Assembly (NCBI GenBank): GCA_964512625.1
Contig: CAZEKG010000005.1
Coordinates: 1-45,321, forward strand
Length of the DNA: 45,321 nucleotides
DNA from: an uncultured Gammaproteobacteria bacterium
Lineage (GTDB): Bacteria > Patescibacteriota > Patescibacteriia > 2-01-FULL-39-33
Direction of reading: 5' to 3'
Shown: one piece after another, positions 8,784 to 45,321 of the stretch
How the letters are laid out: each line of letters opens with the position of its first letter
Position numbering within the stretch: the stretch's first letter is position 1
Made by a program: the position numbers and the translations under genes
Notes under the pieces: model-generated
Database searches by the model: none
What the model was told of the DNA's origin: nothing
Seen by the model: the letters and a program-made list of their open reading frames with translations, nothing else

Positions 8784-8812
8784 AGGACTAATCTCCCCTC
8801 CGGTTAACATAA

Positions 8813-8837
8813 GAACCAAGCCACAATAGCTTGGTTC
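8813..8837 (-). terminator. hairpin (9-bp stem) between the DUF5661-like gene and the 8349-8783 gene
   Basis: GAACCAAGC-N7-GCTTGGTTC, followed on the minus strand by TTATGTT. Confidence 0.4.
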
Positions 8838-8894
8838 TAATAGGTAAAATGTACTTGACTTTATTATATAATTTTAAATAAAAAAACGTCAAGA

Positions 8895-9161
8895 TTAATC
8901 TTTTTTCCAAACAGCTTCCGCTTCTTTTTCCATTTTCTCCAATCGATCATAGTAATCAGGGAACTCATTTAAATGAGCTAAAGCGATTTTCCCGGTCATT
9001 AGCGGATCGTCATCCGTGACATTGGTCGCGCTATCAACTTTTCCATGCTCCAACTCGACATCCATACCGCGCCGGAATTGATCGATATCAAACTTGCTCC
9101 AATCAAGACCTAATTGTTCGCCGATCTTTTTCGCTTCTTCGGCGGTAAATTTATCAGCCAT
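8895..9161 (-). CDS. small conserved protein (DUF5661-like, from memory)
   Basis: 88 aa. The motifs GMDVELEHG and KIALAHLNEFPDYYDRLEKME resemble a small family I recall as DUF5661. Confidence 0.5.
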   Translation of the reverse strand: MADKFTAEEAKKIGEQLGLDWSKFDIDQFRRGMDVELEHGKVDSATNVTDDDPLMTGKIALAHLNEFPDYYDRLEKMEKEAEAVWKKD

Positions 9162-9162
9162 T

Positions 9163-10551: not shown

Positions 10552-10650
10552 AATGTTTCAAATGTAGTCTATTCGTATTTTAACATAAAAAGAAGCCCTG
10601 TGTCATTTGGGCTCAATGATTTTTGTATTTGTATTAATATTTACGAGCAT

Positions 10651-10702
10651 TAAAAAATCCCTCGTCTTCCAGGCGCCCAAGCGTCAAGAAATCCAAGGGA
10701 TT
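10651..10702 (-). terminator. hairpin plus U-run downstream of the 10723-11361 gene
   Basis: On the minus strand, AATCCCT...AGGGATT is followed by TTTTTTAATG. The 33-nt loop is long. Confidence 0.45.
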
Positions 10703-10722
10703 AGAAAAAAAAGTAAATGGGT

Positions 10723-11361
10723 TTAAGTCGTCAACTGCGGAACAACGACGTGACAGCAACCCCCAGCAAACCAGACACGGTCACTCCCGAAGCGACTAAC
10801 ACGGGCATCGAGCCTGCGATCAATATAGGGGCTCACAACAACAACAAAGAACTGCCCATGTGACTTATATAAGAATAAAGTCACATAACCGTCCGTTAGG
10901 AGCCAGTCTCGATACTTCCTTGCGAAGCCTCTTATCTGGGCTGGCGTAAGACAGAGCCTATTCAAATCGGGAGATAATGAGCCGAACATCTGAGGAAAAG
11001 TTCCATCCCTCTCCAACTCAAAAACTTCAGCTTTAGTGGCCGGTGTAGACTTGCCGGGTTCGTCCGCGCCCCAATTACGGAAATAGGGGTCAATACCTCC
11101 GTCGAAGACATCACGAGCATCGACTAATGTTTCCGTCCCATCAGTCGCGTCAATTTCATAATCGCCTGAGATTAAGCGGAGGTAGACCTGCTTAGCGACG
11201 CCAGTCCAACATGGCTGTTTCTTGAGAAAATTCTTAAGCTCCCTCAGCCAATCCTGGCCGGAATTGCCGGAAAGCTTTTCCAACAAGTCATGGATAACTC
11301 CCAGCATTTCCAGCGGTAAAGCCGCTAAAAGCCGAATTATCGAGCCGATCATGTCTTTCAT
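10723..11361 (-). CDS. hypothetical protein (212 aa), GC-elevated orphan
   Basis: ORF at ~58% GC on two sampled lines. GAGAGGAA lies upstream of ATG 11361 (MKDMIGS...). The ORF track extends it to 11457. The C-terminal ...VWFAGGCCHVVVPQL resembles an uncharacterised family I recall only vaguely. Confidence 0.5.
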   Translation of the reverse strand: MKDMIGSIIRLLAALPLEMLGVIHDLLEKLSGNSGQDWLRELKNFLKKQPCWTGVAKQVYLRLISGDYEIDATDGTETLVDARDVFDGGIDPYFRNWGADEPGKSTPATKAEVFELERDGTFPQMFGSLSPDLNRLCLTPAQIRGFARKYRDWLLTDGYVTLFLYKSHGQFFVVVVSPYIDRRLDARVSRFGSDRVWFAGGCCHVVVPQLTT

Positions 11362-11468
11362 GGTCAGTTCCTCTCTCTCTTTTGTCGACCGAGAATTTCC
11401 AGTTACATACTGAGATTCCGGGTCAACCTTTCTTAGGTACTGCCTAATACATATCATATTTAATCTAT

Positions 11469-12209
11469 TTAGTCAATCCCCTTCCTCCCAACAACCAGTG
11501 AATTACCACCCTTAAGAATCCCGACTCTCTTGCCTTTATATTCATACTGAAGCAACTCGATCTTAAAACCGGCTTTAACCATCAACTTCCTAATCTCCGA
11601 CAACTTAAAAGAATGGACATACCTCGGCGCTTCGGCGAGTCCTTTAGTTTTCTTCCAAGGCATGAAAGCGTCACTAAGTCCGTAAACTCCCTTCTTTATT
11701 TTCAAACGATAATTTAAAAGCTGTTTCCAATATTTATAATTATCCGTCATTTGCCAAAGATTCCAATTAGACATGATAACTCGCCCGCCCGGCTTCAGGG
11801 AAGCATAAGCCTGGCGGATAACTCTCTCCCTTAACTCCTTTGAAGGAATATGATGTAAAGAAGCGAATAATAATATCAGGTCGTATTTATTATTTTCTAA
11901 ATTGAGATCGCTTAAATCCCCGAATTCGAACTTGAAATTAGGCTTCGCCTCAAATCTTTCTCGAGCGATCTTAAGAAGCTCTTCGCTATTATCCAAGCCG
12001 AGATAATCGACTTTAAGCTCCTTAAAAATTCCGGCCATGCGGCCATTACCACAACCGAGATCCAAGATCTTATCGCCGTCCTTAGCGTATTTTACAAAGT
12101 CGCCATACCCCTGCCACCAAATACTGCGCGTATCCGAAAAATCAGGCGCGATCGCGTTGTAAATTTCTTTAGTTTCCTGTAAGATTTGGGTAGTTATCTT
12201 CTGATCCAT
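11469..12209 (-). CDS. class I SAM-dependent methyltransferase
   Basis: Motif I ILDLGCGNGR, with motif post-I/II spacing typical of the Methyltransf_11/25 type. 246 aa. Confidence 0.8.
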   Translation of the reverse strand: MDQKITTQILQETKEIYNAIAPDFSDTRSIWWQGYGDFVKYAKDGDKILDLGCGNGRMAGIFKELKVDYLGLDNSEELLKIARERFEAKPNFKFEFGDLSDLNLENNKYDLILLFASLHHIPSKELRERVIRQAYASLKPGGRVIMSNWNLWQMTDNYKYWKQLLNYRLKIKKGVYGLSDAFMPWKKTKGLAEAPRYVHSFKLSEIRKLMVKAGFKIELLQYEYKGKRVGILKGGNSLVVGRKGID

Positions 12210-12212
12210 ATT

Positions 12213-13793
12213 ATGCCTAAATTAGATTTGAACGAAATTATTAAGGTTATAGTCAAAGCCAAACCCTCTTCCGAAAAAGAGCTTTTTAATCTTGTGCGAC
12301 AAGAGGCCGGCAAGTTTAAAATGGGTTCGCCGGAGAAATCAGCTTTGCTTTCAGCATATCATAAACTGATTAAAAAACAACCGAAGCTTAAGTCCTTGGA
12401 ATTGGAAAAATTCCTGACTAAGCGTGCCGTCAGGACACTCTCCGGCGTCGCTGTCATTTCCGTCTTAACCAAGCCCTATCCTTGCCCCGGGAAATGCCTT
12501 TACTGCCCGAGCGAAAAAGATATGCCGAAAAGTTACCTCTCGAATGAGCCGGCCGTCATGCGCGCTATCCTAAACGATTTCGATCCTTATCGCCAAATAA
12601 CCATGCGCCTTAAAGCCTTAAAAGCTAACGGCCACTCGACGGAAAAAATCGAGTTGATTATTATGGGCGGCACTTGGTCATACTTGGAAAAGAAATACCA
12701 AGCCTGGTTTATTAAAAGATGTTTCGAAGCCTTAAACGGCAAAAAAGCCAAAAGCCTTAATGAAGCACAAAAGCAAAACGAAAAAGCCAAGCATCGTTGC
12801 ATTGGATTAACTTTAGAAACCCGGCCTGATTATATAAATGAAGAAGAAATAAAAAGAATGCGAAGCTTCGGCTGTACGCGAGTCGAGTTAGGCATCCAAC
12901 ATATCGATGATAAGATCTTGAAGCTAAATAAAAGGGGTCATGATAACGCCAGTAGCCTACGCGCCATTAGAATGCTTAAAGATTCAGGCTTTAAGATCAA
13001 TCTTCATCTAATGACCGGCCTGCCGGGCTCAACGCCGGCTAAGGATTTAAAGATGTTTAAGGAGCTATATACCTCGGGGGGGTATATGCCGGATATGATC
13101 AAGATATATCCCTGCGTCGTAACTAAAAATTCCGAGCTCTATAATTGGTATAAAAAGAAAAAATATAAACCCTATTCCGATAAGCAACTTTTAAAACTTT
13201 TAATCGACATAAAAAAAATCACGCCGCCTTGGGTTAGAATTACCAGACTGATCCGGGACATTCCCGAAGAAAGCATTGTCGCTGGCAACAAAATAACCAA
13301 TCTAAGGCAGATGATTCAGCAGGCCTCGATCAAAGAGGGTTGGAAATGCAAATGCATTAGATGCCGGGAAGCGGGACATCAAGAGATAAACGCCAAATCA
13401 CAAAATACAAAGACCAAACTAAAAATAATTAAATATCCAGCGTCGGAAGGAATAGAGTATTTCTTAAGTTTTGAATCAAGCGACGAGAATATCTTATACG
13501 CCTTTTTAAGACTGAGGATAAATAAAAAACCGGAGAAGAACTTCTTACTGGAACTGCGGGAAGCGGCGCTAATAAGAGAACTCCATACCTACGGCCAAGT
13601 AACCGCCATTGGTGCTAAAGGTGAAGTCCAACATCTCGGCTTCGGCCGTCAACTGCTTAGGGAAGCGGAAAAAATCGCTTTAAAAGCTGGATTGAAACAA
13701 ATAGCCGTCATTTCCGGTATTGGCGTTAGGGAGTATTATAAGAAAAACGGCTACGAGCTTAAAGGAAGCTATATGGTCAAGAAATTAAAATAA
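12213..13793 (+). CDS. Elp3-family radical SAM / GNAT acetyltransferase
   Basis: Radical-SAM cluster region CPGKCLYCP, an Elp3-like central region, and a C-terminal GNAT (QHLGFGRQLLREAEKIA). ATG at 12213 is preferred over the TTG at 12186 used by the ORF track. Confidence 0.75.
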   Translation: MPKLDLNEIIKVIVKAKPSSEKELFNLVRQEAGKFKMGSPEKSALLSAYHKLIKKQPKLKSLELEKFLTKRAVRTLSGVAVISVLTKPYPCPGKCLYCPSEKDMPKSYLSNEPAVMRAILNDFDPYRQITMRLKALKANGHSTEKIELIIMGGTWSYLEKKYQAWFIKRCFEALNGKKAKSLNEAQKQNEKAKHRCIGLTLETRPDYINEEEIKRMRSFGCTRVELGIQHIDDKILKLNKRGHDNASSLRAIRMLKDSGFKINLHLMTGLPGSTPAKDLKMFKELYTSGGYMPDMIKIYPCVVTKNSELYNWYKKKKYKPYSDKQLLKLLIDIKKITPPWVRITRLIRDIPEESIVAGNKITNLRQMIQQASIKEGWKCKCIRCREAGHQEINAKSQNTKTKLKIIKYPASEGIEYFLSFESSDENILYAFLRLRINKKPEKNFLLELREAALIRELHTYGQVTAIGAKGEVQHLGFGRQLLREAEKIALKAGLKQIAVISGIGVREYYKKNGYELKGSYMVKKLK

Positions 13794-13831
13794 TTTTCCA
13801 ATTTAGTTTTTTAAATTTTAATTTATAATTT

Positions 13832-14296
13832 ATGTCTGACATCAATAAAACAATCCCGGGAGAAATCGGGGTCTTTAATGCTATGATCGCTTCGGGACCG
13901 GTCATTATCCAAGAACGCGAAGGAATTGAAAAAACCCTTCTCGTTAAGCATGGCGACAAACCGCTAGAACAGCTAAAGTGGAAATTTTGCGGCGGTAAAA
14001 TATTAAAAGACATGGGACTGGAAGAAAACGCCATTAGAGAGGCTGGAGAAGAAATCGGCGTCGAAGTAAAACTCACTAAGCCGCTAAAACCGATGATCGT
14101 TTGGCAGGAAATTCCCGAAACTGGCACTCAAAAACCGGAAGCCATCGTCCTTATCCATTACCTAGCAACTATTAGCGAAGAACCTAAAAAAGGCGAACAA
14201 GTACTAGCTATGGATTGGTTCGATATCAATAACTTGCCGGAAGATTGCGCTCCCAATATCAGACCGATTATCGAAGAATACCTATCAATAAAATGA
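13832..14296 (+). CDS. Nudix hydrolase
   Basis: Nudix box GGKILKDMGLEENAIREAGEEIGVEV (GX5EX7REUXEEXGU). Confidence 0.8.
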   Translation: MSDINKTIPGEIGVFNAMIASGPVIIQEREGIEKTLLVKHGDKPLEQLKWKFCGGKILKDMGLEENAIREAGEEIGVEVKLTKPLKPMIVWQEIPETGTQKPEAIVLIHYLATISEEPKKGEQVLAMDWFDINNLPEDCAPNIRPIIEEYLSIK

Positions 14297-14306
14297 ATTT
14301 AAATAA

Positions 14307-14330
14307 GCGGCAGGATCTCCTGCCGCTTTT
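14307..14330. terminator. intrinsic terminator after the Nudix gene
   Basis: GCGGCAGG-ATCT-CCTGCCGC followed by TTTT. Confidence 0.7.
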
Positions 14331-14722
14331 AGTTTCCGGTTTTAGGCCGGCAAAATTCCTTCCACCAAAGGTTATACTTATTCAAATCAGGCTCTGACAG
14401 CAACGATTTGAAATAAGCTATCCCGGCGCTGGAATAATGCCTTATGACCGATTCAAAAAGATGACTCCGCCTCATTTTTTTCTCTTGGACTGATAATAAT
14501 GCCACACAACGTTTGAGACAAACAAACCACCTCCTCCCAGTCTTCACTGTTATTTTCGATGTCTAAACCTATAGTCCGTCTCTGCCTCCATCTCATTAAT
14601 CCTGAAAAACCGCCGAAGATTCCCGAAAAAATCTTCCAGTAGGCCTCGAATAAAAGAACGACGTCTTCTTCGTATTTTCGCACGCGTTGACATGACTCAC
14701 CTCCCGCTGAGCTCATCAGCAA
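14329..14722 (-). pseudogene. frameshifted or uncertain small gene (two overlapping frames joined by an A7 run)
   Basis: The 89-aa frame (14453-14722) and the 72-aa frame (14329-14547) would fuse into ~130 aa with a 1-nt change in the A7 run (plus-strand T7 at 14475-14481). A third frame (14550-14693) is a 47-codon Arg-rich ORF with GGGAGG 6 nt upstream of its ATG. Confidence 0.3.
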
Positions 14723-14736
14723 TACTACCCCGTATC

Positions 14737-15435
14737 TTAAACAAACTGACTAATAAAATAAATCGTGGCCGTCTCCGCCCTTAAAATCCTTAAGCCAAGG
14801 CTGACCGGTAAAATCCCTGAACGGCTCGCCAAAGAAACTTCCGCATCCTCATATCCGCCTTCCGGACCGACGAAAAGATGGACTTCTTCGGCGTTAATAT
14901 TGGGCGTATTTTTCATTTCTTTTTCAAAAGCGATATATTTATGGCCCGCTGACTCCTCCGCTAACTTAACTGCTTCGGGAAAGCCGATAGCCGGCGCCAA
15001 CTCCATCAACTTCGAACCGCCGCATTGCTCCGTCGCCTCCTTAATTATTTCCGAATATCTTTTCTGCTTAGCGGGCGTAATACCTCGAACGATTGAGCGC
15101 GCCGAAATAACCGGAATGAATAATGAAACTCCCAGCTCTGTCGCTTTTTGAACTAATAAATCCATTTTTTCGCCCTTAAGTAAGGATTGATAAAGGACGA
15201 TCTTATTCTTCAATTCACGACGACCAAGATGGCGATCAATTATTAGGAACCGCGCCTCTTCTTTTTTAAGATCAATCAGCTGAGAAACATACTCAAACCC
15301 GGATCCTTCAAAAACAATAAAACGCTCCCCTTCCTTGGCGCGCAAAACCTTAATTAACTGATTGATTATAACTTTATCCCGGCAAACGACATAATCGCCG
15401 TGAAAGGCGGCCTTCTCAATATAGAAACGGTGCAT
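14737..15435 (-). CDS. rsmE: 16S rRNA (uracil1498-N3)-methyltransferase
   Basis: Starts MHRFYI. C-terminal VGPEGGYEDAEV motif typical of RsmE. 232 aa. Confidence 0.8.
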   Translation of the reverse strand: MHRFYIEKAAFHGDYVVCRDKVIINQLIKVLRAKEGERFIVFEGSGFEYVSQLIDLKKEEARFLIIDRHLGRRELKNKIVLYQSLLKGEKMDLLVQKATELGVSLFIPVISARSIVRGITPAKQKRYSEIIKEATEQCGGSKLMELAPAIGFPEAVKLAEESAGHKYIAFEKEMKNTPNINAEEVHLFVGPEGGYEDAEVSLASRSGILPVSLGLRILRAETATIYFISQFV

Positions 15436-24021: not shown

Positions 24022-25152
24022 CTACTCCTTTTCTAAAACTAAAATATTGCGCCAAACAGATTGGCCTTCTCGGCGATAATAGAGCTTACCATCGCTTAAA
24101 TCATTAAAACCGATATTCTTAATTTCCTTATTTAAATAAAGCTGAAAAAATTCCTGACCAAGATGCCATTCAGGAATAACTATAACCGCTCGTCCGCCCT
24201 TCTTTAAAATGGCATAAAATTGCTTTAAAGCATCAATGTAAAGAGGCTTAATCTCGCCCATGATTCTTTTAACTTCGAATTCCTTTTCCGTTCCTCTCAT
24301 TGGCGGACCAAGATAAGGTTCGGTGACGATCGCATCCACGCTTGCCGCTTTAAGGGAATTAGATATTTTTCTGACATCACAATTAAAAATATTTACGGAC
24401 TTCGGTATTTCAGTTAAGCCGTCTACTTCTCCGACGATCCAAATTAAATTTTCTTTCGTATCTTCGATCGCTCGGCTTGAAATATCAGAACCGATAAGAT
24501 GCTTAAAGCCAAGATTGTAAGCTTCCATCAAAACCGTCCCAGAACCGCAAAAAGGATCAAGGATAACTGCGTCCTCATCTTTTTCCGGTGATAAACCGCC
24601 CAGGTTAAGCATCATCTTCGCCGTCTTCGGCGGGAGCATGCCGGAATAGACATCGCTTCTTGGCCGGCCGTAATCGCGAGTCGAATAATCCTTAAAATCT
24701 TGAACCGCGAGAGTGACTCCGAAATAACCGGGCAAGACTAAGAAATCAAGGCATTTTTCTTTACTGACAATAACTGAAGAAAGCGCTTTATCTCGGCTAA
24801 CGACTAAGCGGGAAGATATACCCTCCGCCTTCAACTCTTTTTTCAAGCTTAATCCGAATCCTTTATCCGGCTTAGTACCGTAATAACTGAAGCCGAAGTT
24901 GGCCTTGGAAGGGCCTCTTGAGGCTAAAATTCGGCTTTTAGCCAATTCTTGATCAGGATTAGTACCAATGACCTCCCCTATTTTAATCGTGCCCCCAAGA
25001 CGATTTAGAGCCTCCTGAGCCCCTCCTATGGAGCCTTCAAGGACTAAGTATTCCCGATTTTTTTCTCTAATTTTACAAGAATTAAAAACTGACTCAATTT
25101 CTGCGATTGAGAGCTCCGGGTTATTGCCGAGGATGAAAATATATTGAGACAT
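24022..25152 (-). CDS. putative RNA (guanine-N2) methyltransferase, UPF0020/Trm11/RlmL-like
   Basis: SAM motif ILDPFCGSGTVLMEA and catalytic TEPYLGPP (a DPPY-type variant). N-terminal THUMP-like region. Confidence 0.65.
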   Translation of the reverse strand: MSQYIFILGNNPELSIAEIESVFNSCKIREKNREYLVLEGSIGGAQEALNRLGGTIKIGEVIGTNPDQELAKSRILASRGPSKANFGFSYYGTKPDKGFGLSLKKELKAEGISSRLVVSRDKALSSVIVSKEKCLDFLVLPGYFGVTLAVQDFKDYSTRDYGRPRSDVYSGMLPPKTAKMMLNLGGLSPEKDEDAVILDPFCGSGTVLMEAYNLGFKHLIGSDISSRAIEDTKENLIWIVGEVDGLTEIPKSVNIFNCDVRKISNSLKAASVDAIVTEPYLGPPMRGTEKEFEVKRIMGEIKPLYIDALKQFYAILKKGGRAVIVIPEWHLGQEFFQLYLNKEIKNIGFNDLSDGKLYYRREGQSVWRNILVLEKE

Positions 25153-37106: not shown

Positions 37107-37703
37107 CTAAATAACGGCGGAGGACAAAACCCGCTCTTGACGGCTCGTCCTCTCATTAATCGAGGTGAGGGCGCTATCCGGCACATCCGGAATTCGCGTC
37201 TCGCCACGCTCTTGAGTCGCCGAGTAGTATCCACTCTCGGCAATCCACGCGATCAACTCTATCATTCCAGCACCACTCGCGCGGGGTAGAACCTCAAGAG
37301 CTGTAAGCGCCGCCGGTGAGAAGGAGGATCCGAAGATCTTGTCGCCACAGAAGTAGTACCAGCTGTAGCCGGATACTACCACGACGCCTTTCGCCCGAAG
37401 AATCGCTTCACCCTGCTCGCGTGGCAAGGCATTCCCCGCGCGAAGTTCTTGCGCCTCGGCCGCGATGGTTTTTTTCACTTCCATCATCAAGTCGAGCGGC
37501 GCGAACTCTGCGCGGTACATTTGGCGATTATTCTTGTCGACTTTCCCGTCAACTGGAATCAACCGCACCCTCACCACCTCGTCCGGCTTGACCAAACGAG
37601 GCATAAAAACTATTGACCGATTGTAAGAGGAGATGCACTGTCCGGTCTCCTCGTATTTCCCTCCGCGCTCGGCGCGGAGGGTTGCAACGATTTGTTCCGT
37701 CAT
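37107..37703 (-). CDS. hypothetical protein (198 aa), possible N-terminal TRAM/OB-like fold
   Basis: AAGGAGG lies 5 nt upstream of ATG 37703 (MTEQIVATL...). The ORF-track extension to 37835 overlaps the vWA gene. SIVFMPRLVKPDEVVRVRLIPV loosely resembles TRAM strands. No confident family. Confidence 0.6.
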   Translation of the reverse strand: MTEQIVATLRAERGGKYEETGQCISSYNRSIVFMPRLVKPDEVVRVRLIPVDGKVDKNNRQMYRAEFAPLDLMMEVKKTIAAEAQELRAGNALPREQGEAILRAKGVVVVSGYSWYYFCGDKIFGSSFSPAALTALEVLPRASGAGMIELIAWIAESGYYSATQERGETRIPDVPDSALTSINERTSRQERVLSSAVI

Positions 37704-37713
37704 GCTACCTCCT

Positions 37714-39336
37714 TTACAAGTTCTCGAACACCGCTGCGGCGCTTTCATCAGTGAACGACGATACACGCTCGACGCGATTGGCGAATTCTCGGACACTTTC
37801 GTCGGAGCTGGAGCCAACGTCGCAGAGGACTGCAAACACGTTGACTTTTAACTTCTCCTTGGTCGCCCGGAACTCACGAAGGAACTCCCTCGAAACCGCG
37901 CACTCGCCGTCAGTGATGAAGGCGATGTCGGCTTTGGTGAGCCCTTCGACGCGGATCGTTTGCATCGCTTCGGACAGCGGACGTTCGAAGTCCGTACCGC
38001 CCGCATCGAGAAACGTCTCCGCGATTTCCAGTATCGCTTCGGCCGACAGCCGACCGCCCTTGTACACCCGGGTTACGTTCAGTGAGGAACGCGATCCGAA
38101 ATGCACCCAAACAAACGACCGCTTCTGGAGTTTGGCATAGTGAGCCATGGCGAGAACCATTGCCTTTGCCCACCAACGCTTCTCTCCGTCCATCGAACCG
38201 GAGCCGTCTTCGCAGACGACGACCGGACCGTGGCCAAGCTTCTTCTTCGCCTGCTCGCCGCGCAGCCGGAGTTCACCGCGAGCCCAGCGCGTGAGCGCCT
38301 TCATGCGGAGTGCCGGATGCGAGATCGAAACAAGCTCGGAGTTAACGGCGCGTTTAATGTCCCGACCCATTTCCGGCATCGTGACACGCACACCCTCTGC
38401 CTTCTCCTTCGACCGGGCCTTGCGAGCCGCGATCTGCCGGAGTCGACCAAGGAGCGCCGCGAACTTGCGCAGAGCTTCGCTTTTCTTCATCCGCTCAAGA
38501 ACCCCGAGAGCTTCGGGAATCCCTTTGCGAACAAGCTCGCCTTCATCGAGGCCCCAAGATTCGAGCGTGTCGGATATCTCCTCCACTTTCTCCTTGGCCT
38601 CTTTCGCGGCGGCGATGCCGACACGAGCGAGTTCACGAAGCTTGTCCACCGCCTTATCGCTTCCGGGTTGCCCCAAAAGCTCCTCGACAACAGACTCGAC
38701 TGCTTGCTTGGCCGCATCCGCTTTGGCTCTCGCCGCAGCAGCGCGACCCGCGTATTGGTCAGCGAGTTCTTGCGCTTCTTCGAGCGACATGCCAGAGCCG
38801 TTGCCGGACTGGTTGCCGCTCTGCCCGCCTTGGGTGGCTTGCGCCGCTTCCGCGAGCATGTTCGCCGCCGAGCTTTCGACCTCTGCCTGTTGGGCTTCGG
38901 CTTCCGCTTCGTCGGCGTCGTCCTGCTTCTGCGCAGCTTCCTGAAGTTTCTCTTGGTCCTTCTCGGACACGTTTTCGAGGACCGATTGACCCATCGTCAA
39001 CGTACCAAGCACGGACTTCAGATCGGAATACTGCGTCTGGGCATGAAGTTGCTCGTAGGTCGATGTCGCCATTGTACCCTTGAGAATCTCACCCCAGTAC
39101 CGGCGATCGGCCGGCAGTTCCTCACGCACCACAGGCGTTTCCGCCCACAGCGCGTGATAAAGATCGCACAGCGATCCTGCGAATCCGGGGAGTCGGCTTT
39201 CGCCTTGCTCCTCGACTTCGCTGATCGCTGGCGCATTCTCGCGATGTCGCAGGAAGCGGAGCGCCGTGAAGGCGTCCGCATCCGTGACGAGGAGCTTTTG
39301 GAGCTCCTGCCGCGCGAGTGTTGGTGCCTTCTGCAT
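37714..39336 (-). CDS. ViaA-like von Willebrand factor A (vWA) protein with acidic/coiled-coil middle region
   Basis: The C-terminal vWA has a MIDAS motif (VVVCEDGSGSMDG, then GGTDF, FITDGE), collinear with my recollection of E. coli ViaA (IVCVDTSGSMGG...GGTD...ISDF). AGGAGG 6 nt upstream of the ATG. Immediately follows the RavA-like gene. Confidence 0.8.
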   Translation of the reverse strand: MQKAPTLARQELQKLLVTDADAFTALRFLRHRENAPAISEVEEQGESRLPGFAGSLCDLYHALWAETPVVREELPADRRYWGEILKGTMATSTYEQLHAQTQYSDLKSVLGTLTMGQSVLENVSEKDQEKLQEAAQKQDDADEAEAEAQQAEVESSAANMLAEAAQATQGGQSGNQSGNGSGMSLEEAQELADQYAGRAAAARAKADAAKQAVESVVEELLGQPGSDKAVDKLRELARVGIAAAKEAKEKVEEISDTLESWGLDEGELVRKGIPEALGVLERMKKSEALRKFAALLGRLRQIAARKARSKEKAEGVRVTMPEMGRDIKRAVNSELVSISHPALRMKALTRWARGELRLRGEQAKKKLGHGPVVVCEDGSGSMDGEKRWWAKAMVLAMAHYAKLQKRSFVWVHFGSRSSLNVTRVYKGGRLSAEAILEIAETFLDAGGTDFERPLSEAMQTIRVEGLTKADIAFITDGECAVSREFLREFRATKEKLKVNVFAVLCDVGSSSDESVREFANRVERVSSFTDESAAAVFENL

Positions 39337-39346
39337 TCTCCACCTC

Positions 39347-40561
39347 CTATGGTTTGACCCGGAATTTCGTCCCGAGCATTGCGTTCACCGTTTCCTGCTT
39401 CTCCCCGTCGAGCTGCTTGCGAAGAACGAGGATTGCAGACTTCTCGTCGCCAGTGACTTCGCCCGAGAGACGGTCGAGCTCGCGCTCGGCGTCTTCGAAC
39501 TGTGCCAGTGCGGCAACGAGTTTGTTGCGATCGCCGCCCTTAGCTTCCGCGACGGTCCCAGCCGGAGCCAGTAAAGTGTCGACCACCTCCTGCGCATCCG
39601 AAAGGGGCGTCCGCGTGAGCGGGGCGACCTTCGCCTTGACGATCGGGATCTGCTCGGGAGTGTCCCAGAGCAGAAATTCGAGTACCCTCAGATCGGTCTT
39701 GCTGACCTTCGAGCGCCCGTCGAGGAGTGCCGATGCCTGAAGGACATCAAACACGCGCCCGAACCGGCGGTCATCTTTCCAGAGCCAGTCGAAACCGGCC
39801 TGGTCTTCGTCGAGAAGCTGCTGGTACAGGTCGAGGACGATCTCGACGATATCGTCCGAAACTTCAACCATCAGCCGCCCCTCGCGCAGCCATTCGATGT
39901 CTTCAAGAGAGATCTTCACTGGAGCAGAAGCCGTGCCGCGAGCCCGGTTGATACGGGCGGTGACGAGCGACTTCTTGCCGGCGCGATCGAGAGAGTTCGC
40001 TACGGCGCGAATGGTCATGCGAGACCACATCGCGCCGAGGTTGCCCTCGGGATCGGGAAGCTCATTGCTGGCCGCGACGAACGCGAGGAGTGGAGTTTTC
40101 ATCATCCGTCCCTCGTGTCGCACGCCGTCACCTTTCGACAGGTCGAGCAGGGTTTGCAGAACTCGAGGCTCCGCTTTCCAGATCTCGTCCGCGAAAAGTA
40201 CGTGTGCGCTTGCAGCGCGTCCCAGTGTGTCGCGCGTGCGAATCGACTTCACACCATTGGCATCGGTCGACTCCTCGATGCGAGTTTCCTCGACGAGGAG
40301 CTGCTCGACCGAAACGATCGTCGGCATGAGAGCGTCGTAGAACACGGCGCCGTTGATATTCCGCGCGACGTCCTGCACTGTGCCGGTCTTGTTGATCCCC
40401 GGCGAACCGAGGAAAAAGGCCGGCCGGCCGGACACTAGCGACAGCATGGTCGCGCGGATCAGGGCCTCGCGGCCGATGTTCCGCACGGCGACGTCTGCCA
40501 CCACATTCGCAACCTTCGGCGCAAGCGCCAGTGCTGCGTCAAGCATATCTTGGCTCATCAT
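39347..40561 (-). CDS. RavA-like MoxR-family AAA+ ATPase (404 aa)
   Basis: Walker A GSPGINKT and Walker B [9 protein letters not shown]. The segments [32 protein letters not shown] and [23 protein letters not shown] closely parallel E. coli RavA as I recall it ([53 protein letters not shown]). Start set at ATG 40561, where AAGGAAAGGA lies upstream and ATGA overlaps the stop of the preceding ORF. Confidence 0.85.
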   Translation of the reverse strand: [404 protein letters not shown]

Positions 40562-40863
40562 TCTGTCCTTTCCTTGCCCGTGGTTATACCGTGGGCGTGG
40601 GTACCCAAGAGCGTCCTCACGGCTTCGTTGAAGATATCCTCGCCATGATCCCGTCGAATCACGGCGAGCCAGCGCGTCGCTTTCGCAACGCCGATTGCCT
40701 GCATACCTCCGACACCGTGCTTTCGCGCGGCAATGGAGGCCAGATCGAAGGCCGAGCTTGGTGACTTGTCCCGCGCGATGCAGACGCACTCCTTGTGGAG
40801 TTCGTCTTGCACCTGCGAGAGCACACCGGCCCGGAGCTGGAGTTCAGCAAGCGGTCGATTCAT
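40558..40863 (-). CDS. hypothetical protein (101 aa), translationally coupled to the RavA-like gene
   Basis: AGGAGG lies 6 nt upstream of ATG 40863. Its TGA stop overlaps the ATG of the AAA+ gene (ATGA). The start overlaps the 3' end of the HD gene by ~20 nt. No family recognised. Confidence 0.55.
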   Translation of the reverse strand: MNRPLAELQLRAGVLSQVQDELHKECVCIARDKSPSSAFDLASIAARKHGVGGMQAIGVAKATRWLAVIRRDHGEDIFNEAVRTLLGTHAHGITTGKERTE

Positions 40864-41416
40864 ATTCAACCTCCTGCAAGAGCTCCTCGATCAGGGGCGC
40901 ACCGTCCGGGTCGATCTCGTGCCACAGCGGGAGAGCTGTCCGAATCTCCGCGAGCTTGCGCTTGCGGAACTCGGGTGGCGCGTGCCGCAGAGTGTTGAGA
41001 TTGTCCAGCCGGTCGGATCGCTTCACGATGACCGCCAAGCGGCCACCGGCGGCCACACGGCGAAGGTAAACCTCATCGGGTTCCTCTTCCTCCTCGTGAC
41101 TCACCGCGCGAACGATCCGCGCCACTCGCTCGCCGAACTGCTCGGCAAGCTCATTTTCCGTCGTGTCCGTGTCCTCGATGGTGTCGTGGAGCACGGCAGC
41201 GGCGAGAAGGTCAGTGGCTTCGTCCTCGCTCAACCGCAACTCGGCAGGAATGTCGTCCTGTTCATAGCGATCGACGAAACGTGCCGCAATTTCTCCCACC
41301 CTCATCAGGTGGTCATACTGCGACTCGCCGCCCGGGCGTTTCTGCCCGTCGTGGACGAGGCCGACAAGGGCAACTGCCTTTGCGACCTTCGGTATGGCTT
41401 TGAGTTCTTTGGGCAT
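40844..41416 (-). CDS. RelA/SpoT-homologue HD-domain hydrolase (small alarmone hydrolase-like, 190 aa)
   Basis: YDHLMRVGEIA plus AAAVLHDTIEDTDTTENELAEQFGERVARIVRAVS match the (p)ppGpp-hydrolase HD pattern (H...LLHDxxEDT...FG..VA.LV.GVT). No synthetase domain is present. AGGAGG 6 nt upstream of the ATG. Confidence 0.8.
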   Translation of the reverse strand: MPKELKAIPKVAKAVALVGLVHDGQKRPGGESQYDHLMRVGEIAARFVDRYEQDDIPAELRLSEDEATDLLAAAVLHDTIEDTDTTENELAEQFGERVARIVRAVSHEEEEEPDEVYLRRVAAGGRLAVIVKRSDRLDNLNTLRHAPPEFRKRKLAEIRTALPLWHEIDPDGAPLIEELLQEVEYESTAC

Positions 41417-41532: not shown

Positions 41533-43227
41533 TTACCATGGACACCTTTTCGTTTCGGTGTCCGGGATCGTCTTTTCCCGCCCCCATATGAGAGCGTGGG
41601 TGTTCCAGAACTCACGCGACGTGTCGTCGGCGAACTTAATATCCCACGGCTCGGAAGGAGCGCGGCCGCCCACGAACGCGGTCATAAGGATGTAAGCACC
41701 CCCATACGTGCGTTTGAAGCACGCAGTGACTTTGTTCGTCGGCTCAGGATCGCGGTCTTTGACGAAACGCGTGAGTCCGAGCCGATTCGGCCGTTGGGCG
41801 AAAACGATATTGTCGCCCGGGTTGGTATGGACGCAGATCGTCTCTCCGACGATGCGTCCGAATTCAACCTCGTCACAGAAAGTCTCGCGTCCCTCCGAGG
41901 AGATCTGCGAAAGCGTTTCGGTGAGGAGCGGCATGACGCTCTCGTGCGAGGCGACGTGGCTGTCCTTGCGGTCAACCACGAGTTCGCCCGACTTGAGCCG
42001 CCCGACTTGCGGTGTATCCCAGCGGAGCAGGTCGAACGAGACCGGAACGATCTCACCGACCTTCTCCTCGGCACCGGCGACGACAACCGCAGGCCCCGCG
42101 AAGGGATGTACCTCGTCCCACTTGCGATCCCCGAGGGAGGGCTGCGCCCTACCGGATTCGACCGGCCAGAGCATTGCCACCCACGGAGCACCGGCGCGAA
42201 CGTAGCTGCGCACGATGGTGGCATCCAACCACATCGGGGGACCGTCGTGGGCGAGCACGACGGGCTTCTCAATATCGACCACTGGCGGGGTGACGCCTTT
42301 CAGCATCTCCGCCGTGATAAAACACATTGGCTTGAATTTCACCAATGTGTATTCGGGGAGTTCGAGAACCTCCCACGCGACATTCCCATTCCCGGCACCC
42401 TGCGGCGTCACCTCGGGGATACGGATGTACCCCTTGCTGACGTCGTAGAGTTCGACCGCACCGGAGAGCCGCGCAGCGTAGGCCGAAGCCAAGATCGCCG
42501 CGCGAACATTCCAGATACGGACGACTTCCAGCTTTGCAACCGCAGCGGTAAGCCGCAGCGCGGGCTGGAGGTGATGGGGACGCACGCCCAAGAACGGATC
42601 GTTCTTGTCGACAACATCAAGGCGTCCCACGAGGGTCGCACCGTTGACATTGCACAACATCTCACCTTCGGTCATATCCGCATTACTGCGGATGATTTCC
42701 CTAAGGCGATCGACGACCGCGTTGAGCGTGAGCGACTGGATGGTCTGCCCGCGCTCGAGCCCGCTGATCCGGCCTCGGACGATATTATCGCCCTGGTCGG
42801 GATAGAGCTCGCAGGTGCCATGAAGCACCGAATCGAGCTCGGCGAGTACTCGGACGTCGTTTTGCGTGGCAAACTCATGCCACGCGCTGATCTTTTCGTG
42901 ATCGGACGACAGGATGATGCACCCGTCGCACGCCGCGAAAATCCGGGCATTCTCCGGCGACATAACGCCGCCGGTGTCGACGAGAACGAGCGGTTGCTCG
43001 TTAAAACGGATCGCGTCGACCATCGAGGACACGAAGTCCTCGGAGAACTTGCCCTTTTGGCGAACGACCTGAACCAGGTCTTGATCGCCAAAATTCGACC
43101 AGTGCCACTCCCCATCAGGAGCGGCAAAAGCGAGATAAAACGAATCTGGCGGCAAAAGCCGCATCAGATTCGCCAAAAATACGGACTTCCCCGAATGGGG
43201 TTGTCCACACACTATGATTCGGCGCAT
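41533..43227 (-). CDS. multidomain protein: N-terminal P-loop NTPase, putative Csx3-like domain(s) and an unknown C-terminal domain (564 aa)
   Basis: Walker A GQPHSGKS and Walker-B-like LVLVDTGG. Residues ~285-395 (YTLVKFKP..ITAEMLKGVTPPVVDIEKPVVLAHDGPPMWL....Y.....WVAMLWP) parallel the Csx3 signature as I remember it from AF1864 (FTLIHFEI..IKPEILKEIEIPSVDTRKGVVISGRGPIWL...Y....FVAVYDP). A weaker copy lies at ~190-275. GGGAGGG 4 nt upstream of the ATG. Confidence 0.7.
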   Translation of the reverse strand: MRRIIVCGQPHSGKSVFLANLMRLLPPDSFYLAFAAPDGEWHWSNFGDQDLVQVVRQKGKFSEDFVSSMVDAIRFNEQPLVLVDTGGVMSPENARIFAACDGCIILSSDHEKISAWHEFATQNDVRVLAELDSVLHGTCELYPDQGDNIVRGRISGLERGQTIQSLTLNAVVDRLREIIRSNADMTEGEMLCNVNGATLVGRLDVVDKNDPFLGVRPHHLQPALRLTAAVAKLEVVRIWNVRAAILASAYAARLSGAVELYDVSKGYIRIPEVTPQGAGNGNVAWEVLELPEYTLVKFKPMCFITAEMLKGVTPPVVDIEKPVVLAHDGPPMWLDATIVRSYVRAGAPWVAMLWPVESGRAQPSLGDRKWDEVHPFAGPAVVVAGAEEKVGEIVPVSFDLLRWDTPQVGRLKSGELVVDRKDSHVASHESVMPLLTETLSQISSEGRETFCDEVEFGRIVGETICVHTNPGDNIVFAQRPNRLGLTRFVKDRDPEPTNKVTACFKRTYGGAYILMTAFVGGRAPSEPWDIKFADDTSREFWNTHALIWGREKTIPDTETKRCPW

Positions 43228-43242: not shown

Positions 43243-43677
43243 TTAGGAACCCCATTTCTGACAACCACCCGAATCGGCGGGCTCGAAGTACACGAACTCG
43301 TCGACCTCCGATAAAGTCAACTGCACGCGGCTCTGACTGAGCCGGTCTTTCGTCGCCTCCGCGACACGGATCACCGCATCACGGAAGTCACCGAGCTTTT
43401 CGGGCCCTATGAACTTCGGGTTAGAGTTGCCGGATACTACGGCGATGACCTCGCCGTCCTTCGGGCACCCGAACGAAGTCGGGTACACGACACGGCCCGG
43501 CGTCACCGCCGCGCCAACAAGAATGCCAGAGGCCTTGAATTCCTCCTCCAGCGCCTCACGCCAGGCGTGGGCGACGAGCCCGTCGGCGGTCGTGCCCTCA
43601 GGGAGCCCGTTGTCATGCCCATACCCGGGCACAACGCCAAAAACTGCGGAAAACGCGATCGCGACATTCTTGTTCAT
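43243..43677 (-). CDS. hypothetical protein (144 aa)
   Basis: AAAGGAGAG lies upstream of ATG 43677 (MNKNVAIAF...). The stop is 15 nt before the next gene's ATG. No family recognised. Confidence 0.6.
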   Translation of the reverse strand: MNKNVAIAFSAVFGVVPGYGHDNGLPEGTTADGLVAHAWREALEEEFKASGILVGAAVTPGRVVYPTSFGCPKDGEVIAVVSGNSNPKFIGPEKLGDFRDAVIRVAEATKDRLSQSRVQLTLSEVDEFVYFEPADSGGCQKWGS

Positions 43678-43861
43678 ACTCTCTCCTTTGCCGCATCGAG
43701 CGGCCATTGTTAAAAACCATACCAACGCGCAATTCAATTATTGTACGCTGGATGTGGCGGGCGAGGATTAGAACCAACTAACCTCGCCCCCAAAACCTTT
43801 ACTAGTGTGCCGTGCCACACTAACAACCCAGAACTTCCTCTCTACACGGGAGAGGTGCCGA

Positions 43862-44257
43862 TCAGCCCGCCTTGATGATGCGGGTTACGGCGTACACTTG
43901 CCCGTTCCCGTCGCGAACGGTCCCATCCTTGGGACCGGTGCCAGGAACGAACACGTCGTCCCGGCCGGCGACCTCGGGGCGGCCGGCGATCAGCGCCGAC
44001 ACCAGGTAGACGGTGTCGGGCTGCGGCTCGGGGAGCCCCTCGACCGCGCCGTAGCTGGTGCGATCGTAGACCGCCACTCCGTTGATTGGGGCGAGCGCGC
44101 CGCCGGGCGTCGTCGAGACGCGGGCGGGATTGGGTTTGCCGTCGCTGCCCTTGCGGGCCTCGATGACGAGGTCGGTGGAATCCGGCTCAGCCGCCGTGTT
44201 GGCGGTGTTGATCCGGATCCGCATCGGGTGCGGATTCAGGTTGATAAACGTCGTCAT
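43862..44257 (-). CDS. hypothetical protein (131 aa), first gene of the island
   Basis: AGGAGA lies 7 nt upstream of ATG 44257. MTTFINLNPHPMRI...YLVSALIA...DVFVPG...VRDGNGQVYAV looks like a small conserved beta-rich family that I cannot name. Confidence 0.6.
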   Translation of the reverse strand: MTTFINLNPHPMRIRINTANTAAEPDSTDLVIEARKGSDGKPNPARVSTTPGGALAPINGVAVYDRTSYGAVEGLPEPQPDTVYLVSALIAGRPEVAGRDDVFVPGTGPKDGTVRDGNGQVYAVTRIIKAG

Positions 44258-44381
44258 GGCTTGCTCTCCTTTTTGTGCTTGCCATCATGCTGCGTTCCGC
44301 GCAGCGCGGTTTTAGAAGATCACAAATATTTTGCAACCCCTCCCAAACTTATGAAAATCATAAATTTAGGAGGAATAACAA

Positions 44382-44427
44382 TTTTCCTCAAGCCCCACAA
44401 ACCCATTACTTGCAAAGCCAATTGGAA
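44382..44427. repeat. right copy of the 46-bp imperfect direct repeat flanking the island
   Basis: TTTTCCTCAAG-N3-CACAA-N14-AAGCCAATTGGAA. About 33/46 identical to 37020-37065, with the same internal spacing. Confidence 0.6.
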
Positions 44428-44433
44428 AAACAT

Positions 44434-44580
44434 TTAGCCCGACTGCCGAAGATTATTAGAAAATCCCCGGGCAGCCGAGCCTATATTAGAAAATAATAAT
44501 AGAATTAATATGAATATAAATGCTAAAACTTTTCCTATAAGTAGTTCCCATTCAATTGTCAAAGTCCGTCTTACTCTCAT
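44434..44580 (-). CDS. 48-codon hydrophobic peptide ORF (candidate small membrane protein or type-I-toxin-like)
   Basis: MRVRRTLTIEWELLIGKVLAFIFILILLLFSNIGSAARGFSNNLRQSG has one TM segment. The ATG and the preceding GAGAGG are complementary to an upstream CCAUCCUCU. The ORF ends inside a terminator hairpin. Below the ORF-track cut-off. Confidence 0.3.
   Translation of the reverse strand: MRVRRTLTIEWELLIGKVLAFIFILILLLFSNIGSAARGFSNNLRQSG
44437..44480 (-). terminator. 11-bp-stem hairpin plus U-run, minus-strand specific
   Basis: On the minus strand, GCUCGGCUGCC-N22-GGCAGUCGGGC (two G.U pairs that are C.A mismatches on the plus strand) is followed by UAAAUGUUUUU. Confidence 0.45.
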
Positions 44581-44985
44581 CCTCTCACCATAAGCTCCTA
44601 TAACCTGAGGCCTGATAAAGACATTTCTTTACCTAATTGACTGGTTAGATCGATTAGGTAAATCGTCTCTTTATTAGAAAACGACTGCGCCGTTTAATCT
44701 CTCAAGAGGATGGGTATCCCGCTTAAGCGGGAAGCCATCGAGCTCTTAGGATTAAGCCTTCTTAACACTCATTAAGAAGTTCGCTCTCTTCTAGCGAAAA
44801 CGCGCGAGTGATTTACTTATTCAAGGACTACCTCTCTTCGATCGCAGACCTTGATAAATAATTATTTAAAGTGCATTTCTCCTCTTCGGAGAGCCGGTTA
44901 AGGAAGCGACAAGCTTTTCCCTAACCCGCTCTCCGGCCCGAAGCCGAATAAAAACTCTCTTCGGGCGGAGAGAGTTTTTAATCAT
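44570..44985. ncRNA. hairpin-dense, ORF-free region: candidate structured RNA or long structured leader of unknown class
   Basis: At least ten perfect or near-perfect hairpins, including 44629-44661, 44718-44731, 44757-44779, 44780-44798, 44821-44854 and 44888-44934. A long-range helix pairs 44576-44585 with 44705-44714. No ORF of 60 codons or more on either strand. The strand is unresolved. Confidence 0.4.
44951..44979. terminator. bidirectional intrinsic terminator hairpin
   Basis: AAAAACTCTCT-TCGGGCGG-AGAGAGTTTTT has A/T runs on both sides, so it is terminator-like in either orientation. Confidence 0.6.
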
Positions 44986-45055
44986 AGCTATTTAGTTTTA
45001 CGCCCCTTGGAAAGCTCTCTCCTTCTTTCCTTGGGTCATTTGATCTTACACAAGC

Positions 45056-45084
45056 ATTATAGCATAAGCTTAGCTTTTTGTCAA
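45056..45084 (-). promoter_or_regulatory. perfect consensus sigma70 promoter firing leftwards into the hairpin-dense locus
   Basis: The minus strand reads TTGACA (45084-45079), exactly 17 nt, then TATAAT (45061-45056). Confidence 0.65.
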
Positions 45085-45178
45085 TAAAGCGTATCATATA
45101 TAAATGATAATATAGCAATATTACCTAATTTAAGATATACTTATCCACATATTTTAGCTATATTTTTGTCATAATAAT

Positions 45179-45207
45179 TTGACAAGTAAATATCAATAAT
45201 ATATAAT
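45179..45207 (+). promoter_or_regulatory. perfect consensus sigma70 promoter firing rightwards toward the window edge
   Basis: TTGACA (45179-45184), 17 nt, TATAAT (45202-45207). A 31-nt near-perfect inverted repeat (45214-45244) sits at the predicted transcript start. Confidence 0.6.
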
Positions 45208-45321
45208 TAAAACAGGAAAAACACTTTATGTAAAGTATTTTCCTTTAAAAAATTTAACCATTTAATTAACTTATAAAAACCGTATGTATGAGCAATCCTT
45301 AGTCCAATCGGGCTTAACTGA

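Follow-up and report, generated by a model that had tools for sequence, protein, structure and literature searches.

The window analysed in this study, a stretch of 45,321 nucleotides (nt) from contig CAZEKG010000005.1 of a Patescibacteria genome (assembly GCA_964512625.1), carries on its minus strand an open reading frame (ORF) at 41533-43227 that begins with ATG and encodes a protein of 564 amino acids (aa), as had been confirmed against an earlier reading made from the letters without database searches (the sequence-only reading). The protein comprises a P-loop NTPase (residues 1-185), a linker domain (residues 186-280), a Csx3/Crn3-fold domain (residues 281-400) and a C-terminal domain of an undescribed family (CTD, residues 401-564). 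A total of 106 homologues with E values of at most 1e-3 were found in a large protein collection, about 55 of which were full-length with identities of 55-91%, so the ORF is considered to be a real gene under purifying selection; an exact-sequence look-up of the protein in public assemblies returned no record. The species-representative genomes with relatives belong nearly all to Patescibacteria, or candidate phyla radiation (CPR) bacteria, including Adlerbacteria, Kaiserbacteria, Saccharibacteria, Parcubacteria, Wolfebacteria and Harrisonbacteria, and some databases label relatives 'CRISPR-associated protein Csx3'. The full-length AlphaFold model has a mean predicted local distance difference test (pLDDT) of 92.8 and a predicted template modelling score (pTM) of 0.87, the latter of which suggests that the domains are held in a fixed mutual arrangement. 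The division into a P-loop domain, a Csx3-like domain and an unassigned C-terminus, made in the sequence-only reading, was retained on all three counts, with the NTPase extending to about residue 185, the Csx3-like domain covering about residues 281-400 and the C-terminal part (about 401-564) giving no match to any Pfam or NCBIfam family.

The NTPase (42673..43227, minus strand) was characterized by its Walker motifs, PADLOC models, tblastn and Foldseek. The Walker A motif is GQPHSGKS and the Walker B motif is LVLVDTGG; among 19 relatives, K14 is near-invariant, D84, G86 and G87 are invariant, and so are the PDGEWHW motif and many other polar residues. The PADLOC models PDLC01515 (E 2.5e-38) and PDLC01045 (E 2.6e-30), through the AAA part of the Csx3-AAA and AAA-Csx3 proteins, matched residues 3-176, and tblastn searches returned the slr7080 region of Synechocystis pSYSA and Nostoc 'Csx3' genes with 27-32% identity over residues 1-190. 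Judged by its sequence, the region of residues 1-185 is the module that is called 'AAA' in two accessory families of type III CRISPR, AAA-Csx3 and Csx3-AAA. Weak Foldseek matches were obtained to Soj/ParA/MinD/ParF, adenylate kinase and thymidylate kinase, and the weak Pfam matches were to the kinase-type families AAA_18 and AAA_33; the domain looks kinase- or SIMIBI-like rather than AAA+ in the strict sense.

The linker (42388..42672, minus strand) is conserved and lies inside the model of the AAA-Csx3 family C3a67 (residues 4-355), which is described below. A second, degenerate copy of Csx3 had been proposed for residues 190-275, where 'ELYDVSKGYIRI' was paired by eye with 'AVYDPRLGAVVV', and this pairing is backed by no profile. 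When residues 186-280 were compared by hhalign with the Csx3 domain or with Csx3 of Archaeoglobus fulgidus (AfCsx3), the probability was below 1%, no Csx3 copy was detectable, and the proposal was abandoned. The predicted secondary structure of this region, four helices followed by beta-alpha-beta-beta, does not reach the full Csx3 order.

The Csx3-fold domain (42028..42387, minus strand) was supported in agreement by profile searches, hhalign and Foldseek. The searches with Pfam Cas_csx3 (PF09620) and TIGR02579 that had been recommended gave a divided answer: the single sequence fell below both cut-offs (PF09620, E 0.0049 and 17.1 bits where the gathering score is 21; TIGR02579, 12.2 bits, far below the cut-off of 55.4), whereas PF09620 matched all 19 aligned family members at E values of at most 0.01, and several close relatives have precomputed matches to it. 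A phmmer search of the PDB gave an E value of 0.002, the family profile matched AF_1864/Csx3 (PDB 6yud) at E 1.3e-9, and hhalign against AfCsx3 gave a probability of 97.1% (E 7e-11, 94 columns). The Foldseek search against Csx3/Crn3 structures, also recommended earlier, aligned the AlphaFold model with 6yud at a template modelling (TM) score of 0.82, a root-mean-square deviation of 2.6 Å and 25% identity. The sequence used for AfCsx3 residues 71-104 in the alignment agrees with the numbering in PMC7371418.

The residues that make Csx3 an enzyme were then compared. The conserved catalytic and cyclic tetra-adenylate (cA4) contact residues of AfCsx3 are S44, G45 and R46, which contact cA4, and H57, H60, D69, R71 and H80, which define the enzyme; H60A and D69A abolish activity, and R71A and H80A strongly lower it (PMC7371418). 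None of them was kept in the 564-aa protein, in which R340, V343, W354, V356 and G385/A386 are aligned to H57, H60, D69, R71 and H80, respectively, and the S44-G45-R46 loop is replaced by A-H-D (A-[HNT]-D throughout its clade). An S-G-[RKH] loop is kept in shorter CPR relatives and in CRISPR-linked relatives. By this comparison the domain is of the Csx3 type with the ring-nuclease residues lost, and since all the catalytic and cA4-contact residues are replaced, the canonical ring-nuclease activity that had been suggested for it is unlikely. The domain also has an insertion of about 20 residues after the PVESGR loop. Throughout the family this remodelled loop (P355-x-E357-S358-G-R360) does not vary, and neither do R340 and Y342, which indicates a site that is conserved yet chemically different.

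The CTD (41536..42027, minus strand) is an alpha/beta domain with a confident AlphaFold model (pLDDT 93.8). Foldseek returned nothing below E 0.05 for it (best match 0.12 in the PDB and 0.058 in BFVD), so no known fold could be assigned; the CTD profile found only noise among PDB sequences (e.g. prion protein and 4fbd), and neither a toxin or nuclease family match nor similarity to known RNA ligases, kinases or phosphoesterases was detected. Residues 396-564 have 107 close relatives, nearly all of which are stand-alone proteins of 150-175 aa. In a library of 1.84 billion representative proteins, the CTD profile matched 1,402 representatives at E values of at most 1e-3 and 1,036 at E values of at most 1e-10 (about 1,400 clusters when grouped at 50% identity). 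The 53 longest of these include four with a cold-shock domain (CSD) at the N-terminus, one with a complete C-terminal tRNA_bind domain (E 1.5e-27), two with a tRNA_lig_CPD domain, which is a tRNA-ligase-type 2H cyclic phosphodiesterase, and several in which two CTDs stand in tandem. Nothing but these fusions hints at what the CTD does, and they point to RNA or tRNA; because of the fusions to cold-shock, tRNA-binding and 2H-phosphodiesterase domains, its output is most likely directed at RNA or tRNA. The CTD also matches phrog_23674, to which no function is assigned.

Members of the CTD family were also seen in Rak2-like jumbo phages, namely Cronobacter phage GAP32 and about 19 others. GAP32_368 (L038, 275687-276160) is a stand-alone CTD gene (hhalign 99.9%) located directly after tRNA-Trp in the tRNA cluster of the phage, and its neighbours encode an AAA ATPase of generic type and an ATP-grasp protein of the R2K kind. 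This ATPase was considered as a MoxR partner of the phage CTD and rejected, as it has no detectable similarity to CPR MoxR. In the cultured Bacteroidota species Persicobacter psychrovividus, the megaplasmid pPP1 (L042, 717419-717868) has an ORF of 220 aa that consists of an N-terminal extension of about 65 residues and a CTD; the PLSDB table gives no annotation for it, a MoxR–VWA pair is absent from its surroundings, and this strain may be tractable for work on the CTD.

The gene is located in an island whose genes all run along the minus strand with little space between them. The first operon gene (43862..44257) encodes a Crn4-like ('Unk01') ring-nuclease homologue of 131 aa, which was matched by PADLOC Unk_01 (E 1.5e-11) and, in the PDB, by Crn4a 9sma (E 0.002, residues 3-126), Crn4 H15A 9qs9 (E 0.015) and Crn4b 9r7b (E 0.079). 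The catalytic residues H15 and R112 of Crn4a align with H10 and R115, and T13 is replaced by N (PMC12830947). It is followed by a gene for a PII-fold protein resembling SAM-AMP lyases as well as SAM lyases (43243..43737, with a likely real start at the ATG at 43677), which was matched by the SAM-AMP lyase structures 9gad/9gab and also 9lqd (E 6e-17) and by the PADLOC family Mvol_0529-fam (E 2.7e-19). Catalytic E71 and Q108 are kept in it, and so are C66, N81 and F84, while W64 is replaced by F and Y48 by L (PMC12255297). Both genes have family similarity and the catalytic residues, and the lyase-like protein may act on SAM or on SAM-AMP.

After the gene for the 564-aa protein comes a gene for a SpoT/Rel-type HD hydrolase domain protein that resembles small alarmone hydrolases (40844..41416; Pfam HD_4, E 1.2e-12; TIGR00691, E 2.6e-15). 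By comparison with RelSeq, its sequence contains the metal-binding and catalytic motifs, namely H36, H77-D78, E81-D82, D135 and N139. A small conserved ORF (40558..40869, about 90-103 aa) gave no family match and has homologues at the same position in the related loci L001, L005, L006 and L007. The next gene (39347..40561, likely start MMSQDML) encodes a MoxR-type AAA+ ATPase, with matches to Pfam bpMoxR PF20030 (64.4 bits, gathering score 27), AAA_lid_8 and AAA_5 and a RavA-like match at E 6.6e-32. The VWA co-chaperone-type protein (37714..39336) has an N-terminal helical region and then a C-terminal VWA domain with a DGSGS metal ion-dependent adhesion site (MIDAS), of which D377, S379 and S381 are invariant in eight homologues; the matches were VWA_2 (E 9.8e-6, borderline at 26.6 bits against a gathering score of 27), VWA_CoxE (E 2.2e-5) and ViaA (E 1.8e-10), and in the PDB only generic VWA domains. 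The protein ends about 50 residues past the VWA domain, so it has no propeller. A Ro60/TROVE identity, which was prompted by the helical N-terminus of about 350 residues and the structured RNA upstream of the operon, was rejected because no TROVE match was found in Pfam and the PDB gave generic VWA domains only. The last GC-rich gene of the island (37107..37703, about 198 aa from an internal ATG) is the equivalent of the N-terminal half of a protein that has 429 aa in related loci, and its product gave no family match.

Related loci were compared together with flanks of about 10 kb. The order Crn4-like, lyase-like, AAA-Csx3-CTD, HD, small ORF, MoxR and VWA was found in the window, L001, L005, L007 and others. 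A minimal form, in which a divergent TrmB gene precedes CTD, MoxR and VWA, was found in at least 10 independent CPR loci; stand-alone CTD genes of CPR nearly always have a TrmB-like regulator on the opposite strand and are accompanied by MoxR (350-370 aa) and VWA (435-470 aa) genes. Adjacent but separate AAA-Csx3 and CTD genes are present in L010/L033, L014 and L036, and in L004 the lyase-like gene is placed after the fusion gene. Across the loci the CTD is the constant element, and AAA-Csx3, where present, is always directly upstream of it, fused or neighbouring, which is classical gene-fusion evidence for a functional link. The possibility that one of the unannotated cassette genes (the small ORF, the 198/429-aa gene and those for the 241-, 773- and 388-aa proteins of L036) encodes a messenger synthase was considered and set aside, as no family matches were obtained.

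Some loci show further peculiarities. L033/L010, from Parcubacteria M6-OD1-4 (8745-15276), contains TrmB, lyase-like, weak Crn4-like, AAA-Csx3 (412 aa) and separate CTD (164 aa) genes followed by a helicase gene, and this helicase, a DEAH/HA2 protein of 1,114 aa, stands in place of MoxR–VWA. On a contig of 1.03 Mb that encodes the relative P0017 (L001/L002, 1755-3926 and 17978-19587), the cassette, TrmB and a protein of 973 aa have the EF-G gene on one side and the EF-Tu–S10 genes on the other, which puts them inside the usual str-operon neighbourhood.

The composition of the island is distinct from that of its surroundings. The GC content is 60.4% from about 37,100 to about 44,300 and 41.0% in the flanks, and the GC content at third codon positions (GC3) is 64-87% in the island genes compared with 24-49% in the host genes. 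In all 19 related loci compared (including L002, L006, L012-L015, L019, L022, L027, L031, L033 and L036) the cassette was GC-richer than its flanks, by a median of 10.5 and a maximum of 21 percentage points, and the adjacent syntenic TrmB gene has a host-like GC content. The island may be explained either by repeated horizontal transfer into the same site or by a maintained bias. No integrase, phage or plasmid genes were found within or beside the island in the window, and tRNA-linked integration or att repeats were rejected, as the sole tRNA gene of the window is 38 kb away. Searches of IMG/VR and of phage records returned no full-length relative; an origin of the full-length gene from a phage or plasmid was likewise rejected, as only the CTD alone matches jumbo phages and only the NTPase alone matches cyanobacterial CRISPR plasmids. 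Outside the island, the window contains ordinary bacterial genes, among them recA, ftsK and the genes for RNase J, a solute-binding protein (SBP_bac_5) and a large surface protein.

A consensus promoter and a structured leader precede the operon (44258..45084, minus strand). Two perfect divergent sigma-70 promoters of the form TTGACA-17-TATAAT were found, at 45084-45056 on the minus strand and at 45179-45207 on the plus strand, and the position of the former implies a leader of about 790 nt ahead of the first operon gene. The leader folds far better than its shuffled controls, with z = -5.6 for the window and z = -8.2 for the counterpart of the leader in L002 (8002-8749). The leader could be a structured regulatory RNA or a non-coding RNA; membership in a known RNA family was checked and discarded, as there was no Rfam match.

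Two sequence features were also observed in this region. The motif GAGAG, often as RGGAGAGA and resembling a Shine-Dalgarno sequence, is enriched only on the sense strand, both in 44258-45321 (minus) and in the intergenic regions that separate TrmB from the cassette in L002, L015/L031, L027 and L036, with sense/antisense counts of 10/3 in the window, 10/0 in L002, 13/0 in L031, 8/0 in L027 and 15/2 in L036; its density in the window is 9.4 per kb against a background of 0.95. A stretch of 26 nt just upstream of the Crn4-like gene (44288-44313) is 96% identical to 8710-8735 of L001 and is the only intergenic sequence common to both. It contains the palindrome CCGCGC-A-GCGCGG followed by TTTT and may be an operator or a hairpin.

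The 'orphan' status given to the gene by the sequence-only reading was borne out, as no CRISPR array was detected in the 45-kb window by TRF and no cas gene by PADLOC, which returned accessory-type matches only for 18 ORFs. In the related CPR loci, none of the called genes matched a Cas Pfam family. The distant AAA-Csx3 relatives P0098 and P0089 of Chloroflexota are located beside type III genes, including RAMP, Cas6, Cas10-palm, Card1 and a Cas_NE0113 CARF regulator, in line with the findings of Shah et al.

The first approximately 400 residues of the protein are already a named family, AAA-Csx3 or C3a67 (cluster 67 of Shah et al. 2019; type example Caur_2269), with which they share the order NTPase, linker and Csx3 (PMC6546367). 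The PADLOC model PDLC01059 matched residues 4-355 with positions 7-355 of 382 (E 2.8e-45), which places the protein in the family. C3a67 members are associated with type III (mainly III-B) cas cassettes and most AAA-Csx3 proteins keep an S-G-[RK] contact loop, whereas the protein in the window has no cas genes nearby, belongs to a clade with A-[HNT]-D in this loop, carries a CTD of about 165 additional residues, occurs in a CPR host and is embedded in a MoxR–VWA operon. Crn3/Csx3 (A. fulgidus AF_1864; PDB 3wzg, 6yud and 6vjg) has the same fold as residues 281-400; however, it is a stand-alone, CRISPR-linked dimer of about 110 aa, whereas the domain studied here is part of 564 aa, is not linked to CRISPR and has its catalytic and ligand residues replaced. 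The cyanobacterial Csx3-AAA proteins (cluster 35; Synechocystis Slr7080) contain a homologous P-loop NTPase and are likewise without an assigned function (PMC9676260, PMC8284326), but they have Csx3 at the N-terminus, in the reversed order, are encoded in plasmid-borne type III-B loci and lack the CTD.

Precedents for the operon are found in the MoxR–vWA ternary systems (Kaur, Burroughs, Iyer & Aravind 2020) and in the CARF and vWA-MoxR-VMAP combination (Altae-Tran et al. 2023), which share with it a MoxR protein, a VWA protein with intact MIDAS and a third, system-specific protein, and which offer a precedent for the coupling of cyclic-oligonucleotide sensor domains to MoxR–vWA modules. The third component of the cassette is the CTD family and not VMAP, iSTAND, FtsH or a beta-propeller, for none of which a Pfam match was found; moreover, the cassette lacks classical effector-associated domains and its hosts are ultra-small unicellular CPR bacteria, which were left out of the survey statistics of Kaur et al. 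Near type III loci, CARF sensors have been reported in combination with vWA-MoxR modules and with pppGpp-hydrolase/RelA modules (PMC10910872), Csx3 domains have been reported in NTP-dependent conflict systems (PMC7159879), and an allosteric control of the NTPase by the Csx3 domain was proposed by Shah et al. (PMC6546367). A purely functional analogy may also be drawn to the anticodon nucleases PrrC/RloC. In these conflict systems, an N-terminal NTPase regulates a C-terminal output on RNA (tRNA); no sequence or fold similarity to them was detected.

Taken together, the 564-aa protein may be a three-part sensor–effector that is gated by a nucleotide signal independently of CRISPR and belongs to a signalling or conflict module of CPR bacteria tied to a MoxR–VWA switch, a reading to which we give a probability of about 0.45. 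Of the roles proposed for it by the sequence-only reading, that of a signal-sensing effector fits best. The AAA-Csx3 part would be an NTP-dependent, ligand-sensing regulatory module inherited from type III accessory proteins with the ring-nuclease chemistry lost, and it would be joined to the CTD, natively the third partner of the CPR MoxR–VWA switch. Because the Crn3 residues are lost but the remodelled loop is invariant, the Csx3-fold domain is regarded as a putative ligand sensor, whose ligand would be a nucleotide-type messenger such as a cyclic oligoadenylate (cOA), SAM-AMP, an alarmone-like molecule or an RNA end; SAM-AMP is a candidate because a SAM-AMP-lyase homologue is closely linked. 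Ligand binding would be coupled through the P-loop NTPase to the CTD as output, which would most likely act on RNA or tRNA, the MoxR–VWA pair would serve as a switch driven by ATP, by which the protein with the CTD is remodelled or set free, and the Crn4-like, lyase-like and HD hydrolase homologues would reset or clear the messenger(s).

Several observations weigh against this reading. The cA4-binding side chains of AfCsx3 are gone, so that ligand binding by the protein is itself inferred, and the CTD is without a known activity, a fold match or a toxin or nuclease family match. In neither the window nor the flanks of about 10 kb of the related loci was an enzyme found that could generate the signal (Cas10, CD-NTase, mCpol or RelA-type synthetase), and erasers for three chemically different messengers would be an odd set for a single pathway. 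In addition, identities of 55-91% across CPR classes and the syntenic position next to TrmB are more housekeeping-like than expected of a fast-evolving defence gene. An alternative that is unlikely in our estimate is that the locus serves RNA or tRNA maintenance, in which the CTD is a processing or repair enzyme that needs the MoxR–VWA chaperones, the P-loop and Csx3-fold domains bind or process RNA ends, and no immune messenger is involved. The Csx3 activity was originally on RNA 3' ends, and CARF domains of the RtcR type sense damaged tRNA. The high conservation of the family and the synteny of the CPR locus agree with such a role, as do the CTD fusions to tRNA_bind, CSD and the tRNA-ligase CPD, the CTD homologue right after tRNA-Trp inside the GAP32 tRNA cluster, and the weak matches of the P-loop domain to kinase-type Pfam families and, in Foldseek, to adenylate and thymidylate kinases; furthermore, Csx3 and Crn4 weakly cleave poly(A)-type RNA in vitro (PMC7371418, PMC12830947). 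However, maintenance of RNA leaves unexplained the SpoT-type hydrolase and the SAM-AMP-lyase-like and Crn4-like genes with intact catalytic residues, and the CTD is unlike any known RNA ligase, kinase or phosphoesterase. The cassette is present in a subset of CPR genomes with variable architectures, and this, with its foreign composition (GC3 of 64-87% against 24-49%), is accessory-like rather than core.

The three adjacent eraser homologues, with their catalytic residues kept, could also be read as a signal-erasing island for anti-defence or self-protection, in which the Crn4-like protein acts on cA3/cA4/cA6, the lyase on SAM-AMP and the HD protein on alarmones, with the Csx3 fold as a binder or sponge, and which would shield the CPR cell, or a mobile element that it contains, from nucleotide-based defences. 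Phages and plasmids carry Crn4 and SAM-AMP lyases as well, as candidate anti-CRISPRs (PMC12830947, PMC12255297), and the composition of the island is sharply unlike that of its host. This explanation is considered improbable, as no genes of integrases, phages or plasmids were found within the island or next to it and no full-length relatives in viral collections, the same TrmB-linked site is occupied in many genomes, and the invariant core of the cassette is CTD–MoxR–VWA and not the erasers. A sponge would need the cA4 contacts that the Csx3 domain has lost, and the NTPase and output domain would be superfluous for it; with the chromosomal setting and an operon kept across many CPR genomes, the counter-defence role raised by the sequence-only reading is disfavoured. 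Its primary proposal, an orphan cA4-degrading enzyme of the Crn3 type with extra domains, draws on the clear Csx3 fold and profile similarity and on the database labels 'CRISPR-associated protein Csx3', but scores under the Pfam gathering threshold and far under the TIGR02579 cut-off, and above all the replacement of H57, H60, D69, R71, H80 and S44-G45-R46, make it hardly credible.

A wider picture can also be drawn, which we regard as doubtful. CPR bacteria would carry a CRISPR-independent second-messenger pathway for immunity or stress, in which a Csx3 fold is re-tuned to a ligand other than cA4 (SAM-AMP being suggested by the lyase linkage) and, together with a MoxR–VWA switch, gates a tRNA-directed effector of new fold whose family serves giant phages as well; the cassette would spread horizontally as a GC-rich module and bring along a structured regulatory RNA of its own. 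In the literature searched, whose coverage was incomplete, we found no description of the CTD fusion or the CTD family, of the CTD–MoxR–VWA coupling in CPR bacteria, or of a clustering of Crn4-like, SAM-AMP-lyase-like and SpoT-hydrolase-like genes away from CRISPR. Csx3-NTPase fusions are recognized as a class among the type III accessory proteins, though one without an assigned function; here one of them is fused or adjacent to a defined output domain and wired to MoxR–VWA, which gives a concrete and testable architecture from sensor through NTPase to output. The CTD defines a large unannotated family in CPR, some other bacteria and Rak2-like jumbo phages, with a confident model and no recognizable fold relative. 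The presence of homologues of Crn4, SAM-AMP lyase and SpoT-type hydrolases together without CRISPR-Cas nearby suggests that signalling of the cOA, SAM-AMP or alarmone type, or resistance to it, operates outside CRISPR loci in host-dependent CPR bacteria.

Elsewhere in the window, an ORF of 376 aa (24022-25152, minus strand) was matched by DNA methyltransferase models, including PADLOC mad2 (E 8e-19) and several type II methyltransferase models.

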